Positions 3,411 through 56,010 of a stretch of 64,000 nucleotides of DNA are shown in pieces. The translations under genes and the position numbers were made by a program. Numbering within the stretch: position 1 is the stretch's first letter; every line of letters begins with the position of its first letter. The DNA is from Phoronis australis (lineage: Eukaryota > Animalia > Phoronida). Under the pieces are notes generated by a model that was not told the DNA's origin, made no database searches, and saw only the letters and a program-made list of their open reading frames with translations. The stretch covers positions 1-64,000 of the forward strand of contig NMRA01000646.1 in NCBI GenBank assembly GCA_002633005.1, written 5' to 3'.

Positions 3411-4825
3411 TATTTAAAGGGCTCGCGAAATCGAGGCTGTTAATCTATCACCACTAGTACACGCACGCCCTCTAGTTATTGTAGATTTTCCGAATAGCCC
3501 CATTCAAGCACAACAGTTTTGTATCAATTGGAGTATGAACACGAAATTTATGAATTATTTTGAAGTAAACAAATTCAGAGAATTGGGGTGCGTCTTGAAT
3601 GAAATGAAGGGAAAATATGATAGGAATGTCAGAAGATGACTGCGGGTTTGTTTAAAAGATAGCCATACTTTGAGATAGTTTGTAGATGAAGAGAGAATGG
3701 TTAAATACAGTAATTAATTTATTATCTGATAACCACTAAGTGAGGTCTGTGGTGAATTAAGAAACTTCTAATATTGAAGAAGGCTACGCGGCTAGCACCC
3801 TCTGTAAGGTTTACTTCAATCAATTAATCAAAATAATCAAACATCTGCTATCCAAACTCAGTGTAGGACTCAACACTTGTTGGATGACAGTCATGTTGGT
3901 GAATCTTAAAACTAACACACACTGTACTGCAACAGTGTACTTGCTGGTCACAGTCTTTTGTGCCGACGCAACACTTGCAGGCAATATCTTCAACCCACGA
4001 TTCCTCTTGATGGTCACAGTCTCTGGTGAAGCAAAACTAGCCTACGTGTAGGCAGTGTCCTACTACCTACGATGCAAGTGGCAGGCACTTAGTTAACTTC
4101 CTCTTCGTTAACCCTTGCCCTTGCCAAGATCCTCTTTAGAATCTTCCATAAGATGGCTCTGTTACATAATTTCTTGTGTACATTGCAGCAAGTCTTCTTG
4201 CTTCAACTACTTAATCCCAAGTGAGTATTTTCAAGACGTCTGCCCAAACTATAATAATGTGCTTACTGTACCTAACTATTGGATAATAAAAAAACACATG
4301 ATCTGATCATTGGCTGTTATGATTTGCTCTTAGAAACTTCTAGAAACTTTAAAGTGCATTGACAACTGAACCAATGTAGTAAACATCATCTAAAAATAGA
4401 TCTTGAAGTCAAAAATACATGTAAACAAGTTTGACCCCATGGTTTAAAAGTACGTATGTCAAATTTTAGGCAACTTAAATGGAACTATGTGTACCAATTA
4501 CTTAAATCAATATTTATTCTGAGAAGGAACAGTCATCTAAGACGTAAATGCGTTTCCACAGGGCCTTAAACTTTGAAGAGATCGCAGTGCAATTTATTCC
4601 AAAGTATGAATTGCACGGGAAATTGGTTGCACAATCTTGTCTTTTTGTGTGCACACGATGATGTCGCACGGAAACAGACTAATGTTGCGCCGATTGAGCG
4701 TGTTATGGATAATGTACCCAACGCTATCCTGTTTATTATCAACTCTTACTCAAATTGCGCACAAAAGCGTGCTAAAAAGTAGTTCATTTCCTACAAATTT
4801 GGTCGCTGAGATGCGCAGTCAATGN

Positions 4826-24737: not shown

Positions 24738-27700
24738 TTAAGAAATACTAATTACATACAGCATATCCGCTGTGATGACAAACAGGTGAGTGTTTGAAGC
24801 ACACATGCCTAAAATCGGATCCACATTGTCCAAAGTGAATACCTGCTGCTTGGCTATAGCACCAATTTGTTTTCCTGTCTTCCTGTTACGAAGTGGTGAT
24901 GAGATCTCCTGCGGCTGACGGTAGACATACACATGATGCGTGCAGTCACACAATGCAGCGAAGGAATAGTCTGGAGGGCATGTTGCAAATTTTTTGTTCT
25001 GTTTTGAAGCCTGCACGTAACCAAGTGCATTGAAGGTAGCCACATGTTCCCAGGGGCAGTCAACCGAGGATGGTGACTCACGACGGGGCTGCCAAATGAT
25101 GCCATCAAAGTCATGCCTCAAACAGATGGCTGGAAGTTCATCTGGATTGGAGATGGCATTGAATAACCACTGGTGACAGCTAATATTTGCCTACAAAGCA
25201 ATTGCCAATTAAAAGCATTTGTCATAGGGTGAACAAATTGCTCCCCGCTGCCTAAGGGTGCCACCTAAGGAGGAAGACCATACCACCCCCACAGCTAAGC
25301 CACTACTGTTGCCCAGGATGTGTGAATTTTCAAGGCTGTAATAATTTTAAATGGTAAATTTAGAATGAATTCCAAATTTGTTTAATTCAGCCTTAAAAAA
25401 ATTCTGTCAAAAAAATAATTAAACTATTACAGAGGTCAACATTCAATCAGAGTGCACTTTTGTTTTTCTGTTCATATCTCCATGAACAAGTTAAAGAAAC
25501 AGTATTAAGGTCAATGAAATGATAATGTTGGTGTGACCTTGAAAATGACATCAAGGGCACCAAATTTGACATACACCCAATTACACCTTTGTGCAAAATA
25601 TACACAAAATCCAAATGCTTATTTCTTGTGAGATATTGTGCATACATTTTGCAAGTAAAACTCGCCTTCATCACCACAACCTCGAATTCAAAGTCAAGGT
25701 ATGAATGACTTGAAAAAAATTGAAAATCTATCGCTACCTGGTGTGTAACTTTGTGTGTTTCGCCATCAATTCGCACCATAACTGCAGTGTCCTCTGGAAA
25801 TGTGTCACACTCTTCAAGTTCTTGAGCATTGTATGTCTGCTTCATTTCATCAGCATCCGTTTCCTAGAATGGTACGACACTCATGAACATTCACTGGGTA
25901 AGGTTGCTACTTGTGATACACGGTGATGAGCTCTGCGGTCTTACGAGCCCACCATGTGAACTGCATACAATGTAGATACAACAGCTGATCATTACATAAA
26001 AACTTTCCCACTAAAGCGAGCAAAGGAGAGTAAACCTAACATAAACTCTAGGGAATGAAAACCTAGTGTTTGCCAAATTTTATGAAAATATGTTAATGAA
26101 CTCCAAAGATGCAGAGAAAAATAAAACTACCACTGGGGAACACAGCAGTAGTGGAATCCGAATAAAGTTTGTAATTGTCTCCCACCTTAATAGAACTAAA
26201 CTTTCCAAAGTGAACAAAGATAATGTTAAGGGTTTAGGCGATGCAGCCGTGGATGTCACAGCAGTTGGAGCTGTCCGAAAATATATGTCAGCCATGCTCC
26301 TTCCAGTTGGAACATATATACCGATTCTCATAATTCTTAAAGTGGTTTGGCTGATAGAGAGCCAGATGCCAAAACATTCAAGAACAGCAAAACTGACCAC
26401 AAAATACATCGAATCCATGCAAAAATGGGAAAATGGCTTCATCTTCTTAGATACAAATTTGTCTAATATACATCAAAAATCCATTTAAGAACTCATAAGA
26501 TACAACAGTGTTGTCTCTTTTATAAGATTATTACTTGCCATAATAGCAGTGATAACAATAAAACTATAGACCACAAGGGCACAATAACCTATTGAAGTTG
26601 TGAAAATAGTGCATACATTGATATACTATGTACATGTACTCAGCATTTAGAGCTTATCTTTAACAATCTCAAACAACAAGAGACACCTGCACAACAACAA
26701 TTCCTACCTGAGATTTAACTATGCTTGCAAAGTCTTCTATAGCAGCTTGTTGAGAAGGGTCCAATTGAGCACGACCTTGGGTGTCTCCTTCGATGAACGA
26801 TGGCCAGCTTTCTGCCGTCTGTTTAGTTATTGTGAGGTCAAGTCTGGAATTTGCAGCAGTAACTTTTTAGCTATAAACCCTCCTTCAAAAGCCTTTTATT
26901 CTAGATATATCGAGTTATTCACAAGCAGCACACAAGATATGAACACATATGTAAGCACAGCAAATGAAATATTGAATAGCCTTTACACTCGCATTTTACC
27001 CTGTAAAATGAACAACGAAAGGGCAACTCAAATTTCAGCTATAGAGCCCGCTCTATGCCGGTCGCTACAACAGTTGCAAGAGGTCCCAATCCTTCCATCG
27101 AAATCTTGAAAATCCATTTTTTAATTCTGAGCGAATGTCGGGATATTTATATTTGCACTTAAATGATAACATTTTGCTTGTAATTTCCAGTAACATGAAT
27201 TTCTATGGATGAAACGTGCAAAATCTGTGTCTTTATTATATTAGCTACAAATTTAAAACATTTCTGGGATTTCTTTTGAAGTATTTCTGGCTGAGAACTC
27301 CGCTGTCAAAGAAGATGTCAACATCCCTTAAAAAAAAGGGAAGTCTTGCTTTTTGGTAGCTCATCTCTCCACCTAAAAACCTTTCAAAACAGGAAATTCC
27401 AGTGCTAGTAAACAGTATGGAGAATTTGACATTTTTTATTAAAAAATTCATACATCTGGGCATTGCTTTCGTGCATACAAGATTGTGTGCTCAACAAGGA
27501 TTTTAAAAATATAATAGTTTTATCAATCTACTATTGATACTTAAATTCCCTTTTAAGAATTTTCAATTGATCCTTATTAATGAAGGTACCTTGTCTCCTT
27601 TGTAATCCACAGCAGTAGGGGCAATCATGCATAAAGATCTGACTGGAGGTGATCCTGTCTTAATAATGGCAGGTAATAGGTGCAAACACTAGTGAAGTGC

Positions 27701-34565: not shown

Positions 34566-35360
34566 CTGTTCGAAGAAAAAGTTTGATAACACGAGTATTG
34601 TTCAAGTTGGTAGGAATTGAAGACATCTATGCGAAAAATGTACTTATAACAACGTGACTTTGATGTTTTATCACTGTGAAGCACAATTCGCCAAAAAGCT
34701 TCCAGCCTGTGGAGCTCCTATAGCATACGAGCTTCACCGCTTCTACTGGCCAGCTAGAGATGGTGGTCACTGTCTAGTCAGACAGTAGACAGTGACCACC
34801 CTCTCTGGCCCAGTAGAGATGGCGGAGCTCCATACGCCTGAAGCTTTTCGGCGAATTATGCCTCACACTGACTAAAACATCACGTTGTAATAAATACGTT
34901 TTGCACATAGAAGGACAACTTAGCAGGCCGTCAATGTATTTTAATCCTTCTAACTCAAAGAAATACTCCCATTATCAAACTTTTTCTTCGAGCAGTCCCT
35001 CTTTCACTTCCTGAATTCGGTAACTGGCCATTTTTACACTGCACTCGCCAGGGGATATGACATCATACCACCTGCCGTGCACAATGATAAAATGGTGAGT
35101 TACTGATTTTTGGAACTGAATGCGGGACTGCTAAAAGAAAAAGTTTAATAACGGGAGCATTTCTACGTGTTGGTATGGATTAAATACATTCAACGGCCTC
35201 CTAAGCCAGGTGTCCTCTTTGCACAAAAGATATTTATAACAACGGGATTTTGATGTTTTAGTCAGTGAGAGGCATAATTCGCTGAAGAGCTTCAGGCCTA
35301 TGAAGCTCCTATAGGAGCTCCGCCATCTCTACTGACTGGCCCAGCAAGAGACGGTGATCA
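34566..35360. repeat. Three-arm inverted repeat cluster (forward-reverse-forward, ~220-bp arms; MITE-derived)
   Basis: 34566-34778 folds onto 34786-34995 (centre gtggtcactgtcta..tagacagtgaccac). A third, forward copy lies at 35123-35360. Confidence 0.85.
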
Positions 35361-35805: not shown

Positions 35806-38800
35806 ATGGCGCTGTGGATTCCAAGATCATTGAATCAAGAATGCCTGAAGCTGAAGACAGTCGTTCGATTAATTCGATCACCTGACCTGACCCGTACGAC
35901 AAGGTACTGCATAGCTGAAAATAGCTCTGTAATTCAAAGGAGAAACGTTTCAAAGTGTTCAAACAGTTTAGGTAGGCGTACTGTCAGTGTCATGTTGTCA
36001 AACTCTGCTGACATGAACTGGAGAGACCTAACCCTAAGCCATCAGACTAGGTTCTTAAGGTCTGCTTACGCGTCCAACCTCGTAGAACAATTGAACACCT
36101 ATGCCTGAGTGTCATTCTTTTGTTGAAATCTGAACATTTGCCTTTGTTTTATAATTTTTAGTGTTTGATAGTGGTCAGGTTTGCCAAATACGGGTTTCAT
36201 AAAATTGACTTCATTTTTATGAGCTTTTAATCGTTTTAACTCTCCGTTTGGCAGTCGTAAAAAATCAAATCGACTTTAGGAACACCGAGGCATGGTCTCT
36301 AAAAAGCCATGGAAAATGTTCAGATTACAACGCTGCAACTCGGGTACAGGAATTCACTTGGTCTACGAAGTTGGACAGTGTAAGCAGAGCAACTAAACTT
36401 ACTTGGTGTACGCACTGTACGGCAACCTCTATAATGCTCTTAATTTCACCGCTGAACCTATCATAAAGAGATGATGTTGGAATGAAATTGCAAATTCGTT
36501 TGCATCGTCCTATAAGCTTAGCAGCACATACATGTGTCACTGTTCTTTCACAAGACACAACATGTCATTATCAATTACAGTCAAGTGCAGTGTTTTCCCT
36601 CTGCACTATTACGGAGTTACTACTCTGATGCCATTGAAGAAGAGGTCAAGGAACTACCCAAAAGTGCCCGCGTAGTGATATGTGGCGGAGGGATCACTGG
36701 CTGTTCTGTGGCCTACCATCTGGCCGAGGCTGGCTGGACAGACACAGTGGTGTTAGAACAGGGAAGGTGAGGATGTCAGATTAATGTTTGATTATAGTAG
36801 AAATGTGGTGTGGTGTTTCAATAGTAGTCGGATGTACGTGCCCGCATTTTGAGAACCAGTTTACTCCGCTGAAACAAACTGGTTCACAAAACGTGGGCAA
36901 GTTATCTCTGACTATTGCTGATGTTTCGGGGAAGTTTGAAAACTTCGACTAGCTTTATCTTGCTGAGGTGATGACAACAGTATAGGTATTCATGTCAAAT
37001 AAGCATTGATGGGGAGGTCATCCTATGATCAGTATTTGTTTGATAGCCAAATTACTAACGCATTCAAACTTCAGCTTTGACAACATACTAGTACTTAAAT
37101 ATCAGTGTGTGCTAGCGTCATTCTGTCTGTCATTATTGACTGGTAGAGATTCTAAGATTAAGTTGAATTGAGTAAAAAAGTCAATAATAAGCCTGACTGT
37201 TTGCATTAGTTTTGGTATTTATTTGATGGAAACTATTCTGTTGCTATCTGATGACTTTTGACTCATAAAGGCAACGTAATGTTGAAAATCTGACTAGATG
37301 CATTGTGCACGATCTTGAATTTGTTGCATTCAAGTAGACGGAATGAATCCATGTGACCTGGGTTTAATCCACTGAGCATGGTTTTATATTGTCTACTTGA
37401 ATTCAGTAAACTCAAGATTGCATGCAATTGATCTTGCCAGATCTTCACCACTACTGTTTGAATGAAAGCCTGTAAACACAGTATATTAGTGCTAAAAGCC
37501 ATGTGCATTGGGCTCTTGTGACATTTGTGTGTGTGTTTTTTTTTGTTGTAATAATATCGTCTATGTTGTACATTGTGTGGTTTTGATTATATCTCTTCTA
37601 GAATTGCTAGTGGCTCCACCTGGCATTCAGCTGGCATTGTTAGCCAGCTCAAGACCAACTTAACTGAAAACACTCTGATCAGCCACAGTGTGGCGTTGTA
37701 CAACAAACTGCAGCGGGAAGGCAATGCCATAGGTAAACATTTTGTCTTCTGAGGTAGTCTTTTAATTAGAAAAACTGAAACTAATCAAAATGGTTCAGTT
37801 TTCACATTTCGATTTAGAAAAAAGGCATGCGTTTGTTATGATGACATTTCCATAATTTTTAGTGCCATTAGAGTTACCACAGACCTAACTGTGCTACAAA
37901 AATATACAACTTTGGAACGATTTGGATAAAAAACTAATGCAATAAAATGCAACACAAAGTTAATGTCCTTGGAAACTGCACTCTTCCTTGAACAAACTAA
38001 ATAGGTTATAGTATTAGAAAATAATGTTTTACCATTATTCTTGTGCTAAATTGAGATGACGAGCAGAATTACCCATTCGATGTATAATTTTGAGGTCTTT
38101 ATAAATTCTACACGCATCATTCCCTAGCTATATTTTGACACTAGTCTACATACAGCTAACTGAGCCTCTGTCAAAAAGTAACATTTCACTTTAGACTACT
38201 TTCCATTATTGGTCTCAACTTGTTCATTACGTGACTTAGGAGTGAAAGAACTGCCATTTTGTTAGACCGTGCATTAGGCGATTCTTGGTACAACAACTGG
38301 ATCTAACTGGATCTATCCGGTTGAGCATGTCAGTACATGCCGAGCCCTGAATTCGTTTCTATCCTGAGTAGAGTATTAAGTCGAGACCACTTTCATAGTG
38401 GTAATTAGTGTTTTAGTAAAAATAAATTCACAGAAAATGGCTTTGAATTACCAGGTTTAATTTACATTTTATTAAATTATTTTATTGTCTCTTTAAAGTC
38501 ATGACTATATCCCCAGTTTTTCAAGTGAATAAAGCTTGTTTTTAATGTCCAAATGTAAAGAATGTTTACCATGACTTTAGGCTGAATTGCCTTGTATATG
38601 TCACAGGATTGCATCTCTGGAACCAATTGAGACTTATGAACTTAGTTAGCCAAATGCATTTTTAATCCGCACATTTCATTGTCAAGCTTTCATTGTTTGT
38701 GTGACATGTATGGTATTTACTATTAAAATTGATGTACAAGAGTTGTGCATTATTAGAAAACTTTCACTAAACTTTCACCACCATTTTCTGAATTCATTGT

Positions 38801-41800
38801 TCCCTTGTTATAATACTGGTCATATTTCAGTGAGTGCATTTTGTCTTGCAGGTTGGAAGCAGTGTGGCAGTCTGAATTTAGCCCGAACCAAGGACAGACT
38901 GACCATGTTTAAACGATTGAACGCTGTTGGCAGGTACTGAGTGTGAAATTTCTGTTGATAACAAATAACATCTGTTGTAATAGTAGTCAGCTTACACATT
39001 GTTTAAATATCCATAGAAAAAAAATAACGCGCCAAACTTGGAAAAATCTCTTGTTTCAACAAAAAAGCACAATCATGTTGCTACAAACAGTAAGGCATTA
39101 TTTTCCTGCTCACTGTAGGTTTTTGTGATCATCGAGGATTTGAAAAATATATGATTTTATGGGATGACAAGTTTTATTTTTAAAAGATATTTTAAAAAGT
39201 GTGACCCTTGCTAGTGAAGATGTCCAATTACTTTAATATTAGAAAGGCTAAGCTACAAATTTGATTATGAAACTATTAAACTGTCATGGTGAAATACAGT
39301 GTCCCTGTCTGTCAATGCTTGATTTCATGTTGTGGCCCATTTGCTCTCTCTTTATTGGCAGTTGTGCACACGAATACTGTCACAGAAACCTTGAAAGACA
39401 TGTCTACCTTCACATCAAAACACAATTTCTAGCGAGACCACTTTTTAACATATTCTCACGTGAACACCCCATAAGAGCACGGCCTTCGTGTACTTAGAAC
39501 ATACCTTGAAATCTTACAGAGTCAGTAATATTGAGTGTCAGTTGATCACAGCAAGGGATACTCTGGAGAGGGCGCCATTGATCGAGTCTGCTGATATCCA
39601 GGTGAGTTAGAATGATGTGCTAGATCTTATTTGTGGACCCTCTTGTTTGAGTTGATATTTGAGTACTCAATCAAAACATACTCCAGGAATCATTGGTAAC
39701 AATATATCAACTCAAAACAGATATTTGTTTTCGTTTGTGCTTTTGGTCAAGCTCATGTATACGATTGTCTCTAGTGAAGTTTTCGTATATATAAAGTATA
39801 TATAATTTTATGTCATCGTGTTCGGTTCTCAGTGAATCCAACGTTGTGAAATATCCATGGATGAAAGAAATACTAGTTCATCTACACATCATCTTGACCT
39901 CTTGCTACAACATAATCAAGTGGAAAATGCTTTTCTTGATTTCTATAATTTTGTTTCTGAGTTCTGCATTGGTTGTTTGCTATTCAAAAACTTTCAATTT
40001 CTTTAATTTCAAAACGAAACAAAACTCGGCATCTACTAAACAAGGTTACGCCATGCTCGCATATTAAAAATATCTCTGTTAGCCAATAGGTAGAACAAAT
40101 ACTTACTTTCGAGCTGTTTATGGGAACTTTGCGTGGCTTTAAATCATAGTTGAAGTATAAAGTTGTTTTTGCAACTGAGACATATCTTGTCCATGTTCCA
40201 GGGCAGTCTGTGGATCCCAGGAGATGGCGTTGTCAACGCTAGTGGGCTCACACAAACTCTACAAAGACATGCACAGAATGCAGGTTGGCTTTTTAAACAC
40301 ATGTTTTGGATAAGATTTCTCTGTCAAGTGTTTTGTTTTCTTGCAATGTGCTGTGGATTAAAAGTTGGTGTTAGTAAATTATTAAAGTGAGTGGATACTT
40401 CAGGCACACCTGTCGTTATTTTTCACAGAATTGTCTCATTTCATTTAGATTTCAGCTTATATTGTAGTTATACTTACCGATTAAAATTGCTGTATTTTTG
40501 GTGCAACTTTAACCTATGATTTATTAGGTCATCCTTCATCGATATTATGGGTCCCTTTATTTCTCGACAGGTATTCAGTTTTTTGAGAAGTGTGAAGTTG
40601 AAGACGTGCTGACTGTTAATAGCAAGGTATCGGGTGTGAAGACCAACAGGGGTCACATCAAGTGTGAATACTTGGTTAATTGTGCTGGGCAGGTAAATAA
40701 TCTCGTTTCACTTGGTCACTCATAATAGCGTTATATTCTTTGTTTGGCCGTCAGTTTAAATTCTCCATACTTCATGGCCTCTGCATTATATAGACCATCT
40801 CTGACATTGAGCTTATTCTCAGGTTAGCTGAAGTACTAGCCCAGCCAAATTTCTGTTACCGATAGTGTGCCTGTGACCATTTAGACCTTTCCTTTTCCCT
40901 CACATACTTCACACTGGGCATAGCTAAAGTCTAGTTCTGTTAGACACAAAATAGCTTCTTTAACTATATTGAAATTATTGGCTATACAGTCAACTATGAG
41001 TTATTGGAGCTCAATAATATTAGCTTTCTGTAAATGTCAAGCCGCGTACAATGTCATCTTTACAACAATTTTTTTCTGGTCTATTTTACAGTTCTTAGGG
41101 CACGTTTACATTAATTTCTCTCAACTGCTCTATGGAATGAGTGGACTTATTGATTGACTGTCCCAAACAGGAAATCGATGGTTTTACAGTGACCTAATTA
41201 TCACAGTGTGGGACTTTAATACTGCTTTTATGTATGGTTGGTTACAGTGGGCTCGTCAGCTAGGTAAGCATAGCAAGCCATCGGTGCGGGTACCTCTACA
41301 TGCCTGTGAACACCAGTACGTGATCACCAAACCCATGGCTGGAGTGGACAGCACGANAGTTGGCAGTTGTGCATAATTAGAATACTTTCACTGAAAGCTT
41401 AAAAGTCGTGTCTACCTTCACATCAAAACACAATTTCTAGCTAGACCACTTTTTAACATAATTATTCTCATGTGAACACCCCATAACATCACATTCTTCG
41501 TGTACTCTCAACATACCTTGAAACCTTACAGAGTCAGTAATATTGATTGTCAGTTGGTCACAGCAAAGGATACTCTGGAGAGGGCGCCACTGATTGAGTC
41601 TGCTGATATCCAGGTGAGTTAGAATGATGTGCTATATCTTATTTGTGGACCCTCTTTTTGAATTGATAACTGAGTACTCAATTAAAACATACTCTAGGAA
41701 TCATTGGTAAGAATGTATCAACTCAAAGCATATTATTTGTTTTCGTTTGTGCTTTAAGTCAAGCTCATGTATACAATAGTCTCTAGTGAAGTTTTCGTAT

Positions 41801-44800
41801 GTACAAAAAATATGAAAATGTCATCGTGTTTGGTTCTCAGTGAATCCAATGTTGTGAAATATCCATGGATGAAAGAAATACAGTTCTTCTACTCGTCATC
41901 TTGACATGTCGGCACAACATAATCAAGTGGAAAATGCTTTTCTTGATTTCTATATGTTTCTGAGTTCTGCATTGGTTGTTTGCTATTCAAAAACTTTCAA
42001 TTTCTTTTCAAAACGAAACAAAACTCATCATCAACTAAACAAGGTTACGCCATGCACGCATATTAAAAATATCTCTGTTAGCCAATAAGTAGAACAGATA
42101 CTTACTTTCAAGCTGTTTATGGGAACTTTGCGTGGCTTTAAATCATAGTTGAAGGATAAAGTTGTTTTTGCAACTGAGACATATCTTGTTCATGTTCCAG
42201 GGCAGTCTGTGGATCCCAGGAGATGGCGTTGTCAATGCTAGTGGGCTCACACGAACTCTACAAAGACATGCACAGAATGCAGGTTGGCTTTTTATACGCA
42301 TGTTTTAGAAAGATTTTTTTCTGTCAAGTGTTTTGTTTTCTTGCAATGTTCTGTGGATTAAAAGTTGGTGTTAGTAAATTATTAAAGTGAGTGGTTACTT
42401 CAGGCACACCTGTCGTTATTTTTCACAGAATTGTCTCATTTCATTTAGATTTCAGCTTATATTGTAGTTATACTTACCGATTAAAATTGCTGTATTTTTG
42501 GTGCAACTTTAACCTATGATTTATTAGGTCATCCTTCATCGATATTATGGGTCCCTTTATTTCTCGACAGGTATTCAGTTTTTTGAGAAGTGTGAAGTTG
42601 AAGACGTGCTGACTGTTAATAGCAAGGTATCGGGTGTGAAGACCAACAGGGGTCACATCAAGTGTGAATACTTGGTTAATTGTGCTGGGCAGGTAAATAA
42701 TCTCGTTTCACTTGGTCACTCATAATAGCGTTATATTCTTTGTTTGGCCGTCAGTTTAAATTCTCCATACTTCATGGCCTCTGCATTATATAGACCATCT
42801 CTGACATTGAGCTTATTCTCAGGTTAGCTGAAGTACTAGCCCAGCCAAATTTCTGTTACCGATAGTGTGCCTGTGACCATTTAGACCTTTCCTTTTCCCT
42901 CACATACTTCACACTGGGCATAGCTAAAGTCTAGTTCTGTTAGACACAAAATAGCTTCTTTAACTATATTGAAATTATTGGCTATACAGTCAACAATGAG
43001 TTATTGGAGCTCAATAATATTAGCTTTCTGTAAATGTTAAGCCGCGTACAATGTCATCTTTACAACAATTTTTTTCTGGTCTATTTTACAGATCTTAGGG
43101 CACGTTTACATTAATTTCTCTCAACTGCTCTATGGAATGAGTAGACTTATTGATTGACTGTCCCAAACAGGAAATCGATGGTTTTACAGTGACCTAATTA
43201 TCACAGTGTGGGACTTTAATACTGCTTTTATGTATGGTTGATTACAGTGGGCTCGTCAGCTAGGTAAGCGTAGCAAGCCATCGGTGCGGGTACCTCTACA
43301 TGCCTGTGAACACCAGTACGTGATCACCAAACCCATGGCTGGAGTGGACAGCACGATGCCAGGTGGGTTGTCTGTGCTCTTGGTGGGCTTATTATCCAAC
43401 ACTGTGATACAGTGTTCACAGCATGTGGGCTAACATCATGCATTGGATCAGTTAGGCAACAAACAGTATTTTCAAAAACATTTTATAGTTCCTTGTACGC
43501 CACTTTATAATATCTGCATAGTGTCATTGCATCCAGCGGTGTTATTACATAATCACAAAATTGCACACAGACGGCTCCATCAAACCAAAACTGGCAAATA
43601 ATCAGTTGTTCTTTTGTAGTCAACTTCTTACAACATAGTGGTAGTGCTGAGTATTTCCAAAAATAGGTCCACTCAAAAGTACCCCCATGGAGGTATTTTT
43701 GGAAAATCTTCCTAAAGTAATTGTTTGCATGTTTTAAACATTTTATGGATTGCTTTGAAATACATATATGATATGTTTTGATGTAATTTTTTTTTTTGAT
43801 TTTGGCAAGACATTGTATTTCGGAATCGAGATTTCACAGACAGTTATCAAGGGATGGGGTGGCTTTGTTAGTAACTAAACCATATTTCTTATTTTGAAAA
43901 CAGCCTTTAGTAAATAATTACTGGTATTTTTTTTCTTTAAAACTGTATTTTGAGAGTTTCTGAAAGTATGCCCGGGTATATATTCGATTTTATGTGACGT
44001 TTTTGAAAGGTCATTCTCCAAATATCCGTCAATGGGCTTATTTCCGTAAGTTTCCGGCGTAATTTTGTGTCAGTTTTGACTATTACTTTGTAGTTCACAA
44101 AGAAAATAGCAAGCCATGCTGTGCAGTTATTAGCCTTCAAAACCTTTGTACTGCGTACATGCGATGCTACTTAACATAGTGTACACTTGTTACAATCCTG
44201 CACCTTCTATCCTCGCTTATTGTCCACAGTTATCCGAGACTATGATGGACGCGTCCATATCCGAGAGTACGGTGGAGGACTGCTGGTGGGGGGCTTCGAG
44301 CAGGTAGCCAAACCTGTCTTCCACGATTACGTACCATCCAACCTTGAGTTCACAACACTCCCTGAAGATTGGGATCAGTTCCGTACGTGATCTTACCACA
44401 CACAGTAGTGACAGCAAATCTCAGTGTCTACTAGGTGGCGCTAGTGACAAAAATACATTTTACTATGAGTATTAAATGGAGAGACATTGATATTCTAAAA
44501 TTTTTTTTTTATTGTATGAGTAATGAAAGAAGTGTGTAGGACTGTTGTTTCACTCGTGCCTCTTATTAATTTACCAGCTCTTCATTGCAGAACTTAATAG
44601 GTTGTCCCAAAAAAATTACTCCCACTTTAGTTCATTGCTGGGCATTCAAATTCAGCTCCTGTGAATCAGACTCTGCCCTCGGGCCTACTGTAAGGTTAAG
44701 CTCTGTTGTGAAAGAAGGCGCGTGAGCCAAGAATGGTTACCAAATTACTTAGTTTTGAAGAACAAAGTTTAAACATTTATTGTGCAGTGCTACTGGAAAC

Positions 44801-47800
44801 TCAGAAATGCCAAGTAAGTGCCGAGACAATTTAAAAGATATTTTCACAATGCATTTATTTTGGTTTATAAACTATAAGACTAAATTCCTTTTTTGATCGT
44901 CTCTATGAATTTAGTCCAGTAACCGTGCTCCTGTGTCAATAAACAATGCAGTTATTGTTTTTTAGTTTTAGTACATTTTTGGGACATCCCTTATGTTTTG
45001 TGGGTAGGTTTTAAAGCCGCGAGAAATCATTTTTAAAGTGTATTAGACGTTATAAACATTTATGTAACATTGCTGTAGTCGTCATTGTCTAGAATAAACT
45101 GTAAGTAGCTTAAAGATAAGTTGGTTAGTTAAAACTCAGTATAATATTGTTTTAGAAGTTTCTATTCATGGTTCATTTTTAGATTTGTTCACTTCTTTAT
45201 TGTTATTAATAGATCTAATTAAAAAACTCCTATGGTCTCTGTCACCCTTTTGTTACAGAGGTGCTGCTTGAGCAAGCTCTGCTGAGGATACCCTCTCTGA
45301 GACAAGCACAGGTTCACGCTTTTATCAATGCCTCAGAGAGTTTTACACCTGATGGAAAAATGATATTTGGCAGGTGTCCAGAGGTACGTTCTTGCCGATA
45401 TTTGGGTATTTCAATAGACAATATTCAAGTGACAGTGTAATATCTTGTCTACCTAAAATGACGTTTTGCAAACTTTTGATTTGTTGCATTACAGTACACC
45501 CCCATTTTGGTTCATATGAGTTCATATCAGGCTGATGATAAATTATCGTCATTCATGGCATCGTTCATCGAAAACCGCTGCTAATTGTTTATCATTTCTA
45601 TGTGATAAGAAATCATTACCACAATCAAAGATAGACCTTTGATGAAAAATAATATCACCAGACTATAAACTGTTATCAACCATTTTTATCATAGTAAGTG
45701 TAGTCGCGTAATTTGACCAATAGTGAATCAAATAAACACAGAAAAATCAGGAATCCCAACTGGGAGTCGAACCACAGGTCTCTAGATTGCCATGGTTCAA
45801 TTTCTAGTTAGGGTTCCTGATTTTTATCGTGTATTTCATTCACTATTGGCCAACCTCAGCAGATATCTAATTTACAAACACTGGTAAATTGCTGATCATG
45901 TATAATTGTCGAAATCTCGTGTGAAAAAAGAGTAATGACACTCATGGAATGGATGGCAAAACAGTTGGCTTCAAACAGTAACTACACAGATATTGGATCA
46001 ATATGATCTGAAACACGGGAAATTGAGTGGAAACATACAAAGAAGTACACAGTATGAGTAAAACCCTGTGTTCAGTGTCACATCTGAGGACTGTTTTGGC
46101 CCACATTAGCCATATCCATTCATCCCTGTATTATCATGATGTTACGACACACACAGACCGTCTGATAACTTGGTCTGACGGGGCCCAAAACTGGTAATTT
46201 TTAATACCATTAATTTTTGTGTGCTGCTGTATTGCTTTAATGCAATGCCTGCACTTTTTTAATTAATTGTGTTTTAAAGTTGCAGTAAACCTAACATTTG
46301 ATTTGGTCTATTTACAGAAATAAAACTAAACTAAGCTCGTTCATTATCTCGTATCAGTTTAGTTCTGTAGCAGCCCTTCATTCATTTGACACAAACTTGA
46401 TTGAAGACAGCTCTGTACTTTCTGAGCAACTGCACATCAAACTGTCCAACAGAGAGCACTGTTGTGTTTTTAATCAAGTTTATCTCATTAATAGGAGATT
46501 TCTGGGCTTGGAAATACAGTTGGTTATTGCTTGAGACAACGCTCAATAATCTTGTTTGTAACAACAGTACAGGCTGTGTACCGAGCATGGCCATAAATTC
46601 CATGTTTTACTGAGTAATGAACGAAATCTTGAGTCCAAAGCTTAGTTTCTTTAAGGGAAGGCAGATCTATAGCATCTTCAAATAAGAACAAAATAACAAA
46701 TTTTTAAAAAAGGTTTCACCTGGAAATTTTTAGCATGTCACAGGAGTTGTTTATAAGATCTTAGTGTTTGTGTCAAAATTATGATGTGAGGCTCTGCTTG
46801 AAATCATGAATACCAGGTGGAGAACTACTTTGTCGCCGCCGGAATGCACTGTAATGGAATCTCGACCGCAGGAGGTGTTGGTCAGAGAATGGCCGAACTG
46901 TTGGTCAACGGAAAACCCGGTGTGGAACTGTGGTGTTTAGATGTTAGACGGTTTGTGGAAACAAACAACAACAAGAAATATCTGAAAGAACGCGTGACAG
47001 ATTCGTCAGGTAAACACAGCTGTGTCGTCCCTAAACCAATGAAAGCATTTGGACTGAAACTGTAAACGAGAGAAAACGTTTCTCTGAGCGAATTCACGGT
47101 CATTTTCACAGTCCATTTCTTAAAAGAAGTCGCATGTTATTTGGACAACATTTAACCTAATCTTGCACATACCTCAACTAAACCACTTACTAACCTGGTC
47201 TATCCACCTATTGATCTGCCAATATATATCATACAGGACTGTGTGCAGTTTCCTCATATATACTGCTCATCACTTCAGTCTTAACTGCGGTCAGTTTTCC
47301 TAAATAATTTGCACGTTTGCTTAATATGTTAGTAATATTGCCACTAGTGTTCCAAATGCTTTCCTTGGTCTCAAACCTGTTTACTTTGCCGTAGTTCATT
47401 TTAATTAATGTCTACCGCATAAATTTAGGTCAAGAACTATTTTACTGCGGCTGGAATGTGCGGCAGTGGTGTGACGGTTGCTGGGGGCGTCGGTCAACAG
47501 ATCGCCGAACTGATCATACATGTACTGCCCAGTGTGTGCATTTGGCCAATTGATATACGTCGATTTGTTGATTTACATAACAACAGCAAGTACTTGAAAG
47601 AGCGTGTACGAGAAACTCTAGGTATTGAGCCAACTCGCTTTTGGGCTTTCTGTTGCTTTGAACCATGCGTTTCCCCCGGCTTATTTTGACTGCATGGCTG
47701 TTTTGCTGTTTTCAAAGATGGGTGACTGTGCTTGTATTTTGGTATGCATACAAAGTGGTCATTTTTCATTTCAAGGCATCTGCTGTTCTGTTAGTTGGTA

Positions 47801-50800
47801 TCACTGGTTGTTTTTTGCCTTCTATGTAATATGTAACAAGTGTTCTAAGATGTACATCTACAATAAATTTCAAATAGCTTCCTTGCATCATTTCCTGGTA
47901 ACTTTTGGGAAACTTTTACAATGTCAGATCAATTTACTACGCAGAGTCAGTAACCTCTGTTGCATCTAATAGGGATCTCCGTGAACTTCGCATTGAGCAT
48001 TGTACACTGTAGGAACACCTTTTGTCTTCATGATAAGACCTGTCTGTGATGTCCCGGAGGAATTTTGCCCCAAGTGAGTTGCCTCCCATAAGCTAGATGG
48101 CAGCACTAGTCATCAGAACCATAAGATCAGTAGCCGTGCTTCATAAAAGTCTCCCATCAGCCACAATGGTTTTTTGGGTGTCTGGGGAACCAATAATCAG
48201 TTCTTTCTCCCAGAACCAGTCAGGTGCACTGTTGTGCTTTGGAGAAAACCATCTTTCAGTAGAATACAGATAAGGGGCTACTGTTCCAGTGTGACACTTG
48301 ATGTTCACTAGGTGTCGCTAATGGACAAATGCTCTTCCTTTTTCCATCTAGTACATGGAGAACAGAACAATATTTATCTGCATGGGGGTTCAGGTAGGGT
48401 AAGATTACCTGAATTCATGCCTTCATGCAAATAGGACAGTTGTCTAGACAAACACTGACATCTTGTTAGTTTCAAGCTGCTCACTACCGTGATTATATCA
48501 GTCAGTTGATATTATCTGCTGCGCCAGCTTACAAGTGCATCACATGGCTTCGGGTGTCATAACTTGTAACTTTGGCTGTCGGTCCTGTGTGCATGGAACT
48601 CTCATAGTAATACTGGTAATGGTCCAAATCATTTTGTATTTAAAATAATGTATAATAACGTAGAAAATAAATCTAAAACTAAATAAGGTGATCCAGATCC
48701 TCCCAAGGATACTATTGTTTCACGAAATGTATAGGTAAATTGTCATATAGTGTTTGATTTTACTTTATTTCTGTTTCTGTTGACAAAGGACGTTATTATT
48801 CCGAAAATTTCAGTTGATCCATTCTTGTTGTTTTATTTGCCTATTTATAAATAATGTATAATAATGAAAATTTTGGACATTGTTAGCTAAAACAAAAATG
48901 TTGTACTTGACTCGAGTGTTGCATACAGAAATGCTCGCAGTTTGAATTTTTGGTAAACTGAAACGATTAAATCAGAGTACACAGGAACAAGAAATTATTA
49001 TGTAATGTACAAATTATGCCATTTTGATTGTTCATTTTTGACAGTACCTGGTAATGACACGTAGTAAAATGTTGCGTAGTTATATTCAAAGTAAATAGTA
49101 AAGCTATTTTTACCTTGTTTACCTTGTCTCATAATAATCCTTACTTTGAGAGGATTCTATTTCCGTTATTGTGGCCTACTAGACTGGATGAAATGCCACT
49201 TTAATTGTATGCTATGCAATGGTGTAATAGAGAAAATAATGGTGCTATAATAAAAAAGATGCAAAGCAAATGACAAATTAACTTACATGACATTGCCCAT
49301 AAAATACCCTTGTAGGCAAACTTTTTCAAAAAAAAACAAAAAAACAGTGCAGGTGGTCTGATGTCATTTGCGGTGCATCAGCCGTGCGCAGGCCTCAAAA
49401 GCTGGATAAACGTTTCTTGGGTATCACAAATTAACAACGCGTTAACATACATGTTGACTTCAGCAACATAGTGGCACCAAATGTCAAATGTTATGTCGTA
49501 ACAGCCGTTCATCCTTAACTATTAGTTAAATTTGTGTTTATAATATAGAGCATTTAATCAATGGTTCTTATTTTGTTTTATTCTTTTAATCAGACCGTAA
49601 GACCTTGATACCTTGGAATAATTGTTACAGCTAAAAAACTCCATCAAATTTGGTGACAGTCCATGTAAAAGTTAGTTTTAAATGACGTACAGGTAAAGCA
49701 TGGGTCTATTTCACTGTTGTAAGTTGGGTCGACACATTCTGAGACATAAGAACACATTTTGGTTAGGTATGAACATAGGCCCCAGTGGAAGTTGACTTTT
49801 TTCTTCATCAATAACAACTATGGTACATCGTGAGAGGTTACGGTATCAACATCATGTCTCAGATTTTGTTGACTAAGTTGATATTCTAGTATGTGTATTC
49901 TGGTTTGTGTATTTGTAGCTTATGTCAATGCTAGTACACAAGCCTTTGGCAGGCTGTATCACATCGCATGGCAACTGTAATGGCTGGTACATGCTGCTTG
50001 AAACAAAAGTATTAGATAAGTTCTTAGTTTGTGAAGTTGTGTATTAACTTTGAGTGGTCTTCAAATGCACTGTATAGTCTTGTCTATGAAACCCAGTTTT
50101 TAAGAAGATTGTGTTTAATTTTGTCCCATCGCAATAACTGTTATTGATAACTTGAAACAATATGTCTTGGGGATCGTCAGTTTTTGGTAAAACTTTCAGG
50201 ACTTCCAGCAATGATTAACTATCCAGATATGGAACTGAACTCTTCTCGTAAACTGAGGACTTCACCACTCTACACCAGGCTTGAGAGTCATAGTGCTGTC
50301 TTTGGTCAGAGTATGGGCTTTGAGAGGGCTCTCTATTTCAAGGAGGCTCATAATGGTAACATAAGTTTGATGTAATATGGTGTGAAATTACATTCGAGAT
50401 ATTTGTGATGTTCCAGCTTTTAGAAATGTGTTCACAGCTGAATTATTGTGTCTGGATAGCCCGCTCAATGTAAAACAATGGTTTGTCAGTGTGATGGGCA
50501 GAAAAATATGAAAAGACAAACTAAAAATATTTATGCACTATTTCGTTCTCCTTTATCAGTCGTATTGGGTGTTACCACTTCACGGTCTGCTTTGGTTGAT
50601 GTTTTGTTTTGTTATGTTATTCTACGGTGAATTAGGAAAGTGCTAGTAAATTATAAATAGCCAAGGACAATAAACAAACCTTATTATGTTCTAGGTCGAA
50701 AAGTTGAGGAGTAAATTTAAAATAATTTGTAACGTATGAGTCTTGATATGTCATGCCCATCATACCAGACATTTATTGCTGCTAATCTTTCTCTCTCCCT

Positions 50801-51757
50801 CTCTCTGTCTTGGCTGTAGATGACTACTTCCATGTTGAAGAGGCACCGATGAACAGCTTCAGTAAACCCCATTGGTTTGACTATGTGGGTCAGGAGTACT
50901 GGGCATGCAGAGACGGTGTTTGTATGATTGATATGTCCTCATTTTCAAAAATAGATCTGAAGGTGAGACTTCTTAAAGAAAGGCGTTCATAGATCATTTG
51001 CAATAGGTGAAGCATTCTGCAAACCTGCCTTTGTTCATCACATGGGCGGTGCACCCATGGATCATGAAATATTGATTTAGATTTCTGTCCGGTGGTCTCA
51101 ATTCGCTCTTAGCTCAGATGAAGAATGATTCTTCAGGTATGGTAGAATTGATTTTGAGTGACGGCTTAACTGACCATTTAATAGAACTCAGAGACACCTT
51201 CGTTTCCAAGCCACCATTTTACCCGACAAACAGCACGTTGCCTGGTAAAACTTATTGTTTGTTAGTCGACATTACGCAAGGGGGCGGAGCTTGCGATAGG
51301 TCAATTGTCAGGTCTGTAGTACTTGAGACCATTGTCAGCACAGCAATCCACACGCTGTGATGAGCCATCTTATCGACCCTGATCTCGAGCAATAACGATC
51401 TGTCATCGCATGAATTGACCCTTGTTCAAGTTAGGAGCAAGTTAAGATCAGGGGCTCATTCCAGAAAACTGACTTAGCTGAGACAAATCTTAAACTTATG
51501 TCAAATTTAAGATAGCTTTTAAGTCAAAGTTTGAAGATTGAGACAAAGTTGGTTTCTTGGAACAGGCCCTGATTTATGGTATCAAGGGTTCTCAATAAAA
51601 AGTTTTTATTTTAACGAAGTCTGCTTAATGAACGTTTAAGTTATGTTATGTTATAAATAATTACATCTTAATATTTCTTTTGTCATTTGTACAGAAGTAA
51701 TTGCCTCCTTATATATTTACCTTGTGAACCTATGTATGGCCTTTATTACAGAAGTAA

Positions 51758-51788
<31 letters not shown>

Positions 51789-54700
51789 TATTGATTTATA
51801 TTTACCTTTTAAAGAGTTGTGACTCATTAAAATCTATCTAACCTAGAAAATGGAATGTGTATTTTAGGCTCCTCAATTTTTTTATTATTTACTGAACATC
51901 CATGTTGGTTAATAAAGTTGGTTTCTACCTGTAGTCGGCCGACAACGAAGTAGTAAACTTCCTACAATACCTGTGTTCAAATGACGTTGATCAACCAATC
52001 GGCACTGTGATACACACAGGGATGCAGAACAGTCATGGAGGATATGAAAATGATTGTAGTGTCATCCGCCTGGAGCAGTACCAGTAAGTGGTATTCAAGT
52101 TTCCTTTGGTGCTTTTTCATACTTATTCTGGGCTTGTATATTCACTGATCAACGAGGGGTAATAAAACACTTGTCAGGTCGTAAACCTAAATTAGTTAAG
52201 CTGTGTTTGCTTACAAAGGCCAACTGGGACAGTGTATACCAAGAGCAGACTTCACAAAGAACTGCTTTCAATTGGTGAAAGTACAAAAGAAAACTTAATA
52301 CTGGACTTACATTGCACTGAACTTTTATGTTAATTTCATAAAGACTATTGTGTGAAAACAAAAAATTCTGCTAATAGGTGACCTTTGCACTAATGATGTA
52401 CCCGCAGCATGCAGTGTCATTCCTTAACACCACATCATGATACTCAGTGGATACGATTGAGTGATTTACGGTGGATCATTTCTGACACAAAACTCGTTCT
52501 TAAAAACATTTGGCAATTTTCAATATACTTCATGTTCACATCGTGGCTATATGTTGTGTTTCTAACTAAGTTGACTAAGAAATCACTGAGATAAGGATTT
52601 AGGGTGCAAGTTCCACTTTCAGCATTCCGGTGTCCTTTGTCAGGTTTTGCGACTCACAGACCAATTATCTAACACAGTTCAAAGAATTGTTGAACCAAAG
52701 AGAATTACCTTCGTCGACAGATAACAAAGAACGGAAACCTAATACATCTGCTTTGGCTAATTATCAATTTTCTTCGGGGATAAATGATCCTAACCTAACT
52801 TTTTTATGAGGAATACAATTTCAGAAGCCAAACATTGCAAAAATCACCAGGTGTAGCCCACAATGTATATTAGTTTATTTTAGTTTTATTGCTGTGATGC
52901 TTATGCACCATTAGCTATTCTCTGTTCCGTTTGTTTCCATAGTTACCTGATGATCTCACCCACGGCCCAGCAAACACGTTGCCTGCACTGGTTAGCTCGT
53001 CACCAGCCAGTCAACAGCTCTGTTCTCATCAGTAACGTCACCTCAATGTATACAGTAATCAACCTGATTGGCCCACGTGCTCGTGAACTATTGGCAGAGC
53101 TCAGCGACGTGTCCACAAAGGCATTTGACTTTCCACAGATGACGTGTCAGGTAAACTTTTACTAATTATTGTGTTATGGTAAATCTTAGGTTGAAGTTGT
53201 ATTGTCATGGTTTTAACCTATTGAAACGTGTCTGCAAATGTGCTCAAACTCCCGTAGATTACCAAAAAGTCTCATTCGGATGTCTGGATGATTAGACTAC
53301 TCAGTTCTTTTACCACATCCTAGGGTGTATCTTAAAAATGGGCAGAAGTTTTCGAAGCCTGAGGTGTTGACTCTGCCTTCTCCTTCAGTGTAGGTGGCGC
53401 TGTAGGTTATATGTCAGTCATCTAGAATGTGACATGTTATTGAGTATAGTTATATAATGGGTTGTGAATGGTAGATCTTTGATTCCTAATTATTAATTTC
53501 TTTTATTAATGGTGACGTGGTCTTGCTGCTCTTTTTTCTCTGTATTGATCATATGGATTTGGAGTTATTTCCCTTGCTCAGCCTATGTAATATCTGAAAC
53601 AGTGAAAGACAGTTTTTAATTGTTTTTATTAATTTATTCTTTTTAGAGGTACTTTTGAATTTCATAATTACCTTTGTAGCATGGTCCCCATTATATGTAC
53701 TACAATGGTCTGCTCAGCTGCTTGAGTTTTAGTCATGTTCCAAATGTCAAGTCTTTAATGTGTTTATAAATACTTTTTTGAGATGCAGAAGACAGAAAGT
53801 ATGTTGTTGGGCTCCACCTTCAGTGTATGTTTGCTGTTGGGTGCCACCTTCAGTGTATGTTTGCTGTTGGGCGCCACCTTCAGTGTATGTTTGCTGTGGT
53901 GCGCTACCTTCAGTATGTTTCACGATTGCTGTTTCCCCTTCATTTTTCGTTTTACATGATTTTCTTACAGACCATCAATGTTGGAAATGCCAGTGGTATA
54001 TTAGCCATGAGATTGTCTCACACAGGCGAAGATGGCTTCAGTCTCTTTGTACCATCTGAGGTGAGTTTGTGATAAATTTGTCTTCCTGCCCTGTTACCTG
54101 GATTTTTTCAAACAATTGTTTAGTATTTTGCATATTGGCTGATACACCTATGCTTCACAATAGGTGCAGTCAGGTATCCCCTGTGCATATTGGGCATTTT
54201 TGATATTGCCCGTTAGTTCTTGCTCAGGTATTTGTATAGATGCAAATGGGCTTGAATACATGCATTTGAAGACATTGCTTCTTAAATTTTGCTCAAAGGT
54301 TTCACATACTGGGGAATTCACCTAGAACCTAGGTACAGTTTCACATATAGACACATGCCTCTAAGTAGCAGCGTATGGAATAAATTAGAATACTGCTGGT
54401 AGTCATTTTTGGGCTTTGAGGAGGACAACTAGTATGCATAGTGGTTTAGAATTTTGCAGGCAGTTGTAAATCATGGGTGTTGCTCTCACACAATAGACCT
54501 TTTGAAATTGACATGCATGGTCAGTGAAAGTAGTTCTTTGTGAATCCTGTTCATAGTCATACAGCTGTCCCAGTTGGACTGTGTAAGTAAAAATAGCTGA
54601 GCAAAGGGTTTGTGATAATAGTTGATGAGACACTTGTTTTATTATCCCCTATGCATTCTGAATAGATGAGCCCGTAATGGTTGTGCATCTCAGCGTTATT

Positions 54701-56010
54701 TCCATTTTGCACCCTACTGGGTATTTTGGCATGTAAACCAGTCTTTAGTGACAGACATTTTGTCTTTAACAGTACGCCCTGCACGTGTATGACGCCTTGA
54801 TGTTTGCTGGTCAGGATTATGGAATACAGAATGCTGGGTACTACGCACTGCGAAGTTTACGACTAGAAAAGTTCTTTGCCTTCTGGGGTCAGGATCTGAC
54901 CGCATTCACCAACCCCTTCGAATGTCAGAGAGAGTTCAGAGTTAAACTAAACGTGAGGACTTTTAATTTCATTATTTTTACTAGTTTTGTAAAACATTAT
55001 TCAGATTTTGCTCACAAGTTAAGAATGCTGAAGTACCTCCATCTAGTTGTATTTCAAGAGCGGTATCACAATTCAATTGGTTTTGATGAATGGTCTTTAA
55101 TTTAACCCACTGTATGGCAGATGAGTGGAATCGATGAATGCAGACGATTTTTACTTCATCATTTTCATGACTTAATAGTATTGCTCTTCCGGTAATGAGT
55201 AAAGCGACAAAAGCTGTAGCTTAATTGCAAGGCAGAACGCCAGTGGAACGACCCAGCATCAAGTACAGTGGTCAGATAGGTGTATGGTCGGGGCTTGGAA
55301 TTTCCTCTTTTAAGAGGATTTCTTCTTTTTTGGTTTTGATTTCCTCTTATTTGATTTCCAGTTTCCTCTTTTTGTCCCTTTTTTATCATTTAATTGTAAA
55401 AACCTAAGTTTGTTTTTGTTAAATTTTACAGCACAAAAAAGATATTTGTATCACACAAGCCTATTTATATGTGGAACAATATATCGCCTGGGAAATTTTC
55501 CTCTTTTTTGTCATTGGACATTCCAAGCTCTGATGGTGACATTGTTTACTACATATTTTTTCATCAAGTGGTGCTGTGTAGTACTCTTGACTATTGGTGG
55601 TTTGATTGTAGTCTGATATCGACTTTATTGGCAAAGAGGCCCTGCGCAAGATACAGAGACAAGGTGGTGTGGAGAAGAAATTCGTCCAGGTTTTTGTTGA
55701 CCCTAAAAAGATTCAGGGCGAGTCATGGCCATGGGGTGGAGAGCCCATTTATCGTAACGGCAAATACAGTGGCATGACAACATCTGGCTCGTACGGTTAT
55801 GGACTGCACTCCCATGTGTGTCTGGGATATGTTTTTGATCTGGACGAGACAAGTGGGAAAACAAATCTTATTAATAATGATTTTGTTATGGAGAATGCTG
55901 AGTATCAGATCGACGTTGCTGGAACCCGATACCCCTGTCAAGTAGGACTGTATGCACCCAAGACAGGTTCATCTGTGCATGACATTTTTGTGCCAGCTAG
56001 AATGGTTTAA
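35806..56010 (+). CDS. PDPR: Pyruvate dehydrogenase phosphatase regulatory subunit, mitochondrial (GcvT/FAD-dependent oxidoreductase family)
   Basis: Exons: 35806-35903 (putative transit peptide; start and first junction uncertain), 36581-36766 (VVICGGGITG, Rossmann), 37602-37732, 38852-38933, 41532-41613, 42201-42282, 42571-42692, 43248-43362 (duplicate set 39520-41356), 44230-44382, 45259-45383, [46817-47009 or 47429-47621], 50200-50355, 50820-50962, 51935-52083, 52943-53150, 53971-54060, 54773-54952, 55612-56010. PDPR-type motifs are KPHWFDYVGQEYWACR, LQYLCSNDVD..GGYENDCS and WPWGGEPIYRNG. Confidence 0.92.
36821..36920. repeat. ~100-bp palindromic MITE (related copy at 61938-62044)
   Basis: gtgcccgcattttgagaaccagttt..aaactggttcacaaaacgtgggca; the same structure occurs in a DENND11 intron. 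Confidence 0.7.
39355..43356 (+). repeat. ~2-kb tandem duplication of four PDPR exons, joined at a single N (41357)
   Basis: 39355-41356 corresponds to 41360-43356. Copy 1 breaks off inside its fourth exon at the N. Confidence 0.92.
44598..44993. mobile_element. Tc1/mariner-type MITE
   Basis: Termini aggttgtcccaaaaaaattact ... agtacatttttgggacatccct with TA-like flanks. Confidence 0.6.
45713..45853. repeat. Foldback hairpin built from two inverted tRNA-like B-box halves
   Basis: ccaatagtgaat..aaaaatcaggaa.cc.aact versus agtt.gg.ttcctgattttt..attcactattgg. GGTTCGACTCC lies on - and GGTTCAATTTC on +. Confidence 0.7.
46817..47009 (+). CDS. PDPR: PDPR alternative exon A (mutually exclusive)
   Basis: cag|GTG...TCA G|gtaaac, 193 nt, phase 0 to 1. 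Encodes VENYFVAAGMHCNGISTAGGVGQRMAELLVNGKPGVELWCLDVRRFVETNNNKKYLKERVTDSS. Confidence 0.88.
47008..47386 (+). promoter_or_regulatory. Candidate intronic RNA stem controlling exon A/B choice
   Basis: 47035-47053 accaatgaaagcatttgga is complementary (18/19) to 47351-47369 tccaaatgctttccttggt. The outer helix pairs 47008-47016 aggtaaaca (the donor) with 47378-47386 tgtttactt. Confidence 0.65.
47429..47621 (+). CDS. PDPR: PDPR alternative exon B (mutually exclusive)
   Basis: tag|GTC...CTA G|gtattg, 193 nt, phase 0 to 1. Encodes VKNYFTAAGMCGSGVTVAGGVGQQIAELIIHVLPSVCIWPIDIRRFVDLHNNSKYLKERVRETL. Confidence 0.88.
51449..51571. mobile_element. Short MITE (GGGGC...GCCC termini)
   Basis: caggggctcattccagaaaac ... 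gtttcttggaacaggccctg; a related end occurs near 60958. Confidence 0.45.
51762..51797. repeat. (ATTG)n microsatellite
   Basis: Visible attgattgattg run. Confidence 0.9.
53798..53920. repeat. 30-bp minisatellite, ~4 copies, just upstream of a PDPR acceptor
   Basis: agtgtatgtttgctgttgggcgccaccttc units. Confidence 0.92.

Follow-up and report, generated by a model that had tools for sequence, protein, structure and literature searches.

A predicted stem in the intron between two alternative PDPR exons of Phoronis australis may help to keep them mutually exclusive

How does a gene that carries two tandem copies of an exon arrange for a transcript to receive one of them and not both? This question is raised by a 64,000-nucleotide stretch of the phoronid Phoronis australis (assembly GCA_002633005.1, contig NMRA01000646.1, positions 1 to 64,000; the window, below, is this whole stretch), in which a gene for a pyruvate dehydrogenase phosphatase regulatory subunit-like protein (PDPR) holds two alternative versions of its tenth exon, 10A and 10B (A and B hereafter), separated by an intron of 419 nt (47010–47428). 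Close to its ends this intron carries two complementary arms that are predicted to form a stem. Here, we propose, with a confidence that stops a little short of even, that this single stem, acting without a competing partner, blocks the joining of A to B by pulling the donor of A close to the predicted branch point of B, and that decay of frameshifted transcripts serves as a backup.

The gene that hosts the stem runs along the + strand, as do all features below unless marked otherwise, from 36519 to 56010, and its last exon matches proteins that bear the name pyruvate dehydrogenase phosphatase regulatory subunit. Its model has AG/GT borders throughout and keeps a single open frame with A or with B, giving 17 exons per isoform and 885 amino acids with either exon 10; named homologs and Pfam place the product in the DAO/FAO_M/GcvT family, with about 54% identity to the best stored homologs, a cephalopod cluster. 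Exon A (46817–47009) and exon B (47429–47621) lie between the shared exon 9 upstream (45259–45383) and the shared exon 11 downstream (50200–50355). Both copies are 193 nt long, have the same phase, encode the same region of the protein and are identical at 117 of 193 nucleotides and 34 of 64 amino acids. Their synonymous sites are saturated (pS 0.75, pN 0.29) and the sequences that flank them show no similarity (32/120 and 22/120); judged by sequence, the copies are an old duplication.

Are both copies used? We analyzed three raw RNA runs, X1, X2 and X3, chosen by their species label and each read to 18–19%, together with a contig from a fourth run, X4, and listed joints from a threshold of 3 reads per run. 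Joints from A to exon 11 are carried by 8, 3 and 0 reads in X1, X2 and X3 (11 in total, from two of the three raw runs), and joints from B to exon 11 by 4, 0 and 8 reads (12 B-donor junction reads). On the upstream side, exon 9 is joined to A in 4 reads of X1 and 4 of X2, and to B in 2 reads of X3 and in the one X4 contig; at exon 9 itself the 8–9 and 9–B joints are recovered as such and 9–A as loose ends. No A–B joint is present among the joints listed in 46300–48300, which corresponds to fewer than 3 reads per run, and none of the listed joints skips both A and B. A and B are true alternative exons, spliced singly between exons 9 and 11. Inclusion of both shifts the frame and leads to a stop at 47551, and skipping of both shifts it to a stop at codon 5 of exon 11, so nonsense-mediated decay could hide either product. 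Exons 9, A and B are each followed by an ordinary GT donor without the U12 consensus, and on this ground we rejected an incompatibility between U2 and U12 spliceosomes. The pair thus shows the features by which mutually exclusive exons have been recognized, namely bridging reads, the lack of joining reads or a frameshift on joining, and agreement in homology, length and phase (PMC5740500).

What distinguishes the intron between the two exons? The 5′ arm (47035–47053) begins 25 nt beyond the A donor and the 3′ arm (47351–47369) ends 59 nt ahead of exon B. As a preliminary description of this DNA had stated, the arms pair at 18 of 19 positions, interrupted by a single U–C mismatch, and neither the intron nor its arms has a further copy within the 64-kb window. 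The core helix has a calculated energy of −24.7 kcal/mol and a mean pair probability of 0.97 in 8/8 folding windows, and the stem remains at 0.95–0.97 in all 18 combinations of window and temperature (15–37 °C), including prefixes that end at 47380. Folding of the segment 46950–47450, the check that the same description had suggested, gives z = −2.93, with 0/100 shuffles equally stable. Formation of the stem is accordingly a prediction of folding models; the two Rfam matches are far below the gathering score and neither is in this intron.

Such a helix could in principle arise by chance, and we compared it with several backgrounds. Across 2000 dinucleotide shuffles of the intron, inverted matches go no higher than 16 (0/2000 reach 17). 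Among 147 non-overlapping 419-nt tiles of real sequence, which cut the observed stem in two so that it is not among the tile values, 17 is reached twice, 16 once and 18 never. When the geometry of the intron is kept, two of 1027 placements in the window reach at least 18, one being the A–B stem itself and the other a long foldback repeat near 34861. Across the 17 introns of the gene, the longest helix between the first and last 120 nt is 18 in the A–B intron and 7–10 in the others (one control intron was ended 20 nt early, at 43227 for 43247, and the first was begun one base late), and the end-to-end duplex energy of the A–B intron is matched by 0/60 shuffles. The stem sequence is therefore present far beyond chance, and specifically in the intron that separates A from B.

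Rarity does not by itself imply function, and the stem may be a neutral relic, either a small inverted duplication or a decayed repeat, with exclusivity provided by transcript decay and protein factors alone. Inverted repeats of this kind do occur in the genome: four other placements among the 1027 have inverted matches of 16–21 bases (three of them 16–17), mostly derived from repeats. In addition, the two copies of another segment of the window are about 5% different, which is of the same order as one mismatch in a 19-base arm and makes a young origin of the stem possible. Against a relic speaks the placement of the stem: of 17 introns it falls in exactly the one between the duplicated exons, and its arms lie close to either end of that intron. 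Unlike most background repeats, it comes without target-site duplication, extra copies or extended arms. The arms also differ at 1 of 19 positions, yet the exon copies are synonymously saturated and their flanks dissimilar, which fits selection maintaining the arms. We regard a neutral origin as unlikely, and keep it at that level because nothing shows conservation and because three loci with a duplicated next exon have no similar stem. Reads of X3 cover the arms at a depth of 3–4 with no listed variant, and since the flanking intron likewise has no listed variant, this is uninformative on conservation or editing. A more specific origin, from a miniature inverted-repeat transposable element or another non-autonomous DNA transposon, was rejected: no target-site duplication was found at the symmetric arm ends, a 5-nt repeat appearing only at an asymmetric offset, the arms are single-copy in the window, and read depth over them is low and confined to one strand, in contrast to the repeats near 45750 and 48700, which pile up reads on two strands.

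How might the stem keep A from being joined to B? The candidate branch adenosines of exon B are predicted at 47383, 47404 and 47408, which is 14, 35 and 39 nt past the 3′ arm. Measured along the linear intron they are 373–398 nt from the A donor, and steric hindrance in its linear form, as described for OGDH, fails for this intron. With the stem folded, the same spacing would become 39, 60 or 64 nt, and about 10 nt less if a small palindromic hairpin at intron positions +5 to +16 (47014–47025) forms as well, as this would shorten the spacer between donor and stem; its probability is 0.08–0.96 depending on the folding window, and about 0.7 before the 3′ arm exists. The earlier proposal that folding places the A donor near the branch region of B is thus supported by the models, at an effective distance of 39–64 nt. 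Published steric limits for the distance between donor and branch point are about 50 nt (PMC5740500; PMC7969005) or 60 nt (PMC13762713), so that the folded intron would bring the A donor to around the limit for spliceosome assembly. The stem is predicted to be able to form before the acceptor of B is transcribed, and as the 3′ arm is complete 59 nt ahead of that acceptor, a spliceosome attempting the A–B joint would always meet a folded intron. Products that leak through would be removed by nonsense-mediated decay, and the choice between A and B would not depend on the stem but be set by trans-acting factors together with two weak acceptors. A stronger form of this proposal, in which folding alone, with neither a competitor nor a distant branch point, shrinks the distance between donor and branch point about eight-fold, so that the 419-nt intron behaves as one that is too short and the exons become mutually exclusive, is in our view the more doubtful of the two.

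Several observations weigh against a steric block. Two of the three candidate branch adenosines give 60–64 nt, at or over the quoted limits, and all three are predicted. Stems that bridge donor and branch point in yeast usually promote splicing of the intron that contains them (PMC7404189). The frameshift followed by decay could on its own explain the missing A–B reads, and the read test for this joint is weak, given 11 A-donor and 12 B-donor junction reads, the threshold of 3 and the sampled share of each run. The four other inverted matches of comparable length count here too. Among 45 related loci none has two full exon copies, hence no conservation or covariation is shown, and at three loci in which the equivalent of exon 11 is duplicated the spacers between the copies have best matches of 8, 11 and 16 and no comparable stem; the match of 16 resembles a transposon end.

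Could the fold instead silence the A donor (47007–47015) directly? The preliminary description had drawn a 9-nt helix, stacked outside the core stem, between 47008–47016 and 47378–47386. This complement exists, with one G–U pair and 42–50 nt ahead of the acceptor of exon B, and the proposed anti-donor 9-mer overlaps the candidate branch adenosine at 47383. The pairing is possible and not favoured: the helix as drawn has a probability of 0.000–0.18, usually near zero, and an energy of −7.3 kcal/mol versus −8.3 for pairing with U1, and the donor bases are contested by the hairpin at +5 to +16 and by the 3′ end of exon A. In every fold the GU of the donor is base-paired, and a shifted 5-bp register (47007–47011 with 47375–47379) reaches 0.71–0.96 in 3/8 windows; in the remaining 5/8 it is at most 0.12, and the predicted pairing of the donor is local, with shifting partners. 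When the stem is forbidden, the donor becomes easier to open by no more than 0.2, 0.6 and 1.6 kcal/mol in three windows, and its opening cost ranks 6th among the 17 donors of the gene, in mid-range. Moreover, the A donor is in use, with 11 reads, and its supposed partner is transcribed about 370 nt later. Sequestration of the donor by long-range structure fails in silico, and we consider it very unlikely as the basis of exclusivity.

The loop of the stem contains a perfect branch-point-like heptamer (47188–47194), which is unpaired in the folds and is followed by seven AGs before the acceptor of B. The stem might serve to loop out this heptamer together with a cryptic acceptor (AG at 47235) and so keep them from capturing the A donor. 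The heptamer occurs only three times on the + strand of the window, the first AG follows 42 nt past it, and the next four bases are identical to the start of exon 11. On the other hand, the motif was noticed post hoc (about 0.02 by simple density), it has a weak pyrimidine tract and the acceptor at 47235 is used by no read, so that we give such decoy hiding next to no credence; the heptamer and AG (47188–47240) are possibly a decoy acceptor or a decayed remnant. A role for the heptamer as a distant branch point of B was rejected, as seven AGs intervene and it lies about 180 nt from the A donor.

What, then, determines whether A or B is used? Their use varies among the samples (exact p = 0.0009 for reads and 0.009 for distinct starts), which would suit a regulatory bridge of the kind known from FGFR2, where the stem tunes the ratio of A to B by bringing protein-binding elements near the A donor or the B acceptor, and exclusivity is left to frameshift decay and weak splice sites. 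GCATG is found at 47132, ACTAAC at 47189 and TGCATG at 47691; we take GCATG and TGCATG to be Rbfox-type motifs and the heptamer at 47188–47194 to be a STAR/QKI-type motif. GCATG is also found upstream of A, at 46733, and the TGCATG at 47691 is about 70 nt after B. The statistical support for the stem is identical for a bridge and for a steric block, and there are precedents, since the IAS2–ISAR stem of FGFR2 activates IIIb and represses IIIc (PMC2471395) and structures in SCN9A and ATE1 shift the exon ratio while exclusivity is kept (bioRxiv 10.1101/2025.08.16.670673). Yet the motifs are not clearly enriched over other introns, and a near-constitutive helix of −24.7 kcal/mol without a rival partner is by itself a poor switch. 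We therefore judge a purely regulatory bridge improbable, while giving it real weight.

A different source of exclusivity is competition, in which one arm chooses between its partner in the A–B intron and a docking site in a flanking intron, as in Dscam-type systems. The arms do occupy the positions expected of selectors in the bidirectional model, the first just 3′ of A and the second just 5′ of B (PMC4691838; PMC6071210). Nevertheless, their best outside partners in 45384–50199 reach −15.7 and −18.5 kcal/mol, values that 77 and 75 of 100 shuffled arms equal or better and that fall far short of the −26.1 kcal/mol of the two arms with one another. Competing or selector pairing is therefore extremely unlikely, and the analogy with Dscam1, 14-3-3zeta and Mhc that had been drawn for this intron does not hold for either arm. 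For the same reason we rejected bidirectional pairing of the srp type, with two crossing stems, a conclusion whose scope is these two arms.

The steric block that we favour presupposes two exons, and their duplication looks lineage-specific, since the 45 related loci from a metagenome scan include none with two full copies and 16, by our own count, that are genomic and hold a single copy between both neighbouring exons. The 193-nt exon has the same borders in 14/14 relatives checked, and in these single-exon relatives (14/14) the best matches at the beginning of the intron that follows reach only 7–10. A search for a close relative that carries an exon like A or like B found none, the exon A query returning no longer homologs and a profile of A and B two short ones, and scallop records of equal length gave no exon swap, their differences being spread across the whole protein or located far upstream. 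The loci with a tandem duplication of the exon 11 equivalent are L001 (2964–3542), L008 (4437–5249) and L016 (5461–7504); both types of copy are common to L001 and L008. These loci hint that exons around the FAO_M region have been duplicated more than once. Where a GT donor would be expected, the first copies show no clear one. In two further loci, L025 and L026, an additional intron interrupts the exon 10 equivalent near codon 23; in L024 the 3′ half of this exon is present as several partial fragments in tandem.

Would the two isoforms differ in function? Exons A and B each encode the final positions of the Pfam domain DAO, which binds FAD, and the beginning of FAO_M, and both align to dimethylglycine dehydrogenase and to chains of sarcosine oxidase. 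The stretch in which the isoforms differ thus comprises the last strand-loop-helix of the FAD-binding domain and the start of FAO_M. At exon positions 11–12 relatives have NS, A has HC and B has CG; positions 10–14 presumably line the flavin site, as in this enzyme family. A alters H50 and E62, each invariant in 20/20 relatives, and B alters G32, present in 19/20, so that the copies deviate from near-invariant residues at different places. Judged by alignment, the two isoforms are likely to differ in flavin environment or domain interface. Reads of X1 and X3 depart from the window at three sites of exon B (47459, 47471 and 47608), giving C11S, V15L and one silent change, with no such listing in exon A; these differences may be alleles.

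Elsewhere in the window, exons 4–7 of PDPR are present twice (39330–41356 and 41358–43400, 94.9% identical), and the first copy of exon 7 is cut by an isolated N at 41357; the two segments are likely two haplotypes merged in the assembly, a real tandem duplication being the alternative. The introns that flank the exon pair contain short repeats at 45713–45853, the first of them with nested inverted arms, at 48654–48849 and at about 49380, which attract many reads on both strands and look like multi-copy mobile elements. Two long imperfect foldback repeats (34566–35279 and 36061–36388) lie just upstream of the start of PDPR. From their translations, we take the open frames at 4610–5585 (+ strand), 11005–11883 (− strand) and 24738–25863 (− strand) to be a remnant of a retrotransposon integrase, a fragment of a seven-helix receptor and exons of a NudC-domain protein, respectively.

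Most known cases of mutually exclusive splicing guided by structure come from insects and vertebrates, and the PDPR case is compact, with two exons, one 419-nt intron and one 19-bp helix, which makes it suited to telling a steric block from a regulatory bridge. Through its swappable exons, PDPR would provide a regulator of the pyruvate dehydrogenase complex in two forms, with different ends of the FAD-binding domain and sample-dependent use. If folding alone can impose a steric limit, surveys that score only the linear distance between donor and branch point, which assign 9% of human clusters to this class (PMC5740500), would miss such cases.

Exon swapping in PDPR is not reported at the level of literature listings. 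Among titles and the beginnings of abstracts on structure combined with steric hindrance, none describes a layout like this one, although a 2013 study by Yue on Dscam exon 17, whose title suggests a combination of the two in a two-exon cluster, may be a direct precedent. With Dscam1 exons 4, 6 and 9, 14-3-3zeta, Mhc, MRP1, srp and RIC-3, PDPR shares tandem duplicated exons with intronic complementarity nearby. Docking/selector and bidirectional systems are, however, defined by pairings that reach into the flanking introns (PMC4691838; PMC6071210) and, in the docking/selector case, loop out an exon, whereas the PDPR stem is contained in one intron and has no used exon in its loop; as no competing docking site was found, it is not of the Dscam type. 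Similar to PDPR, the yeast stems between 5′ splice site and branch point are nested in one intron with the donor and branch point outside (PMC7404189). They promote splicing of that intron, in contrast to the A–B intron, which is not seen spliced and whose removal causes a frameshift. OGDH, likewise a gene of a mitochondrial dehydrogenase complex, is close to PDPR in the mechanism that we favour: in its exons 4a and 4b, and in 57 human clusters, exclusion accompanies a donor-to-branch distance below about 50 nt (PMC7969005; PMC5740500). That distance is short in linear terms, through distant branch points and an AG-free zone, while the PDPR intron measures 373–398 nt, contains several AGs and would be short only if folded.

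In layout the stem resembles that of FGFR2. IAS2 and ISAR both lie in the intron between IIIb and IIIc, so that FGFR2 and PDPR share one long-range intronic stem. They also share duplicated, mutually exclusive exons and a frameshift on double inclusion (PMC2471395; bioRxiv 10.1101/2025.08.16.670673). The FGFR2 stem is conserved from sea urchin to human, has been proven by mutation and brings activator and repressor elements together, whereas the PDPR stem is predicted. What sets PDPR apart from FGFR2 is that its folded distance between donor and branch point would approach the steric limit.

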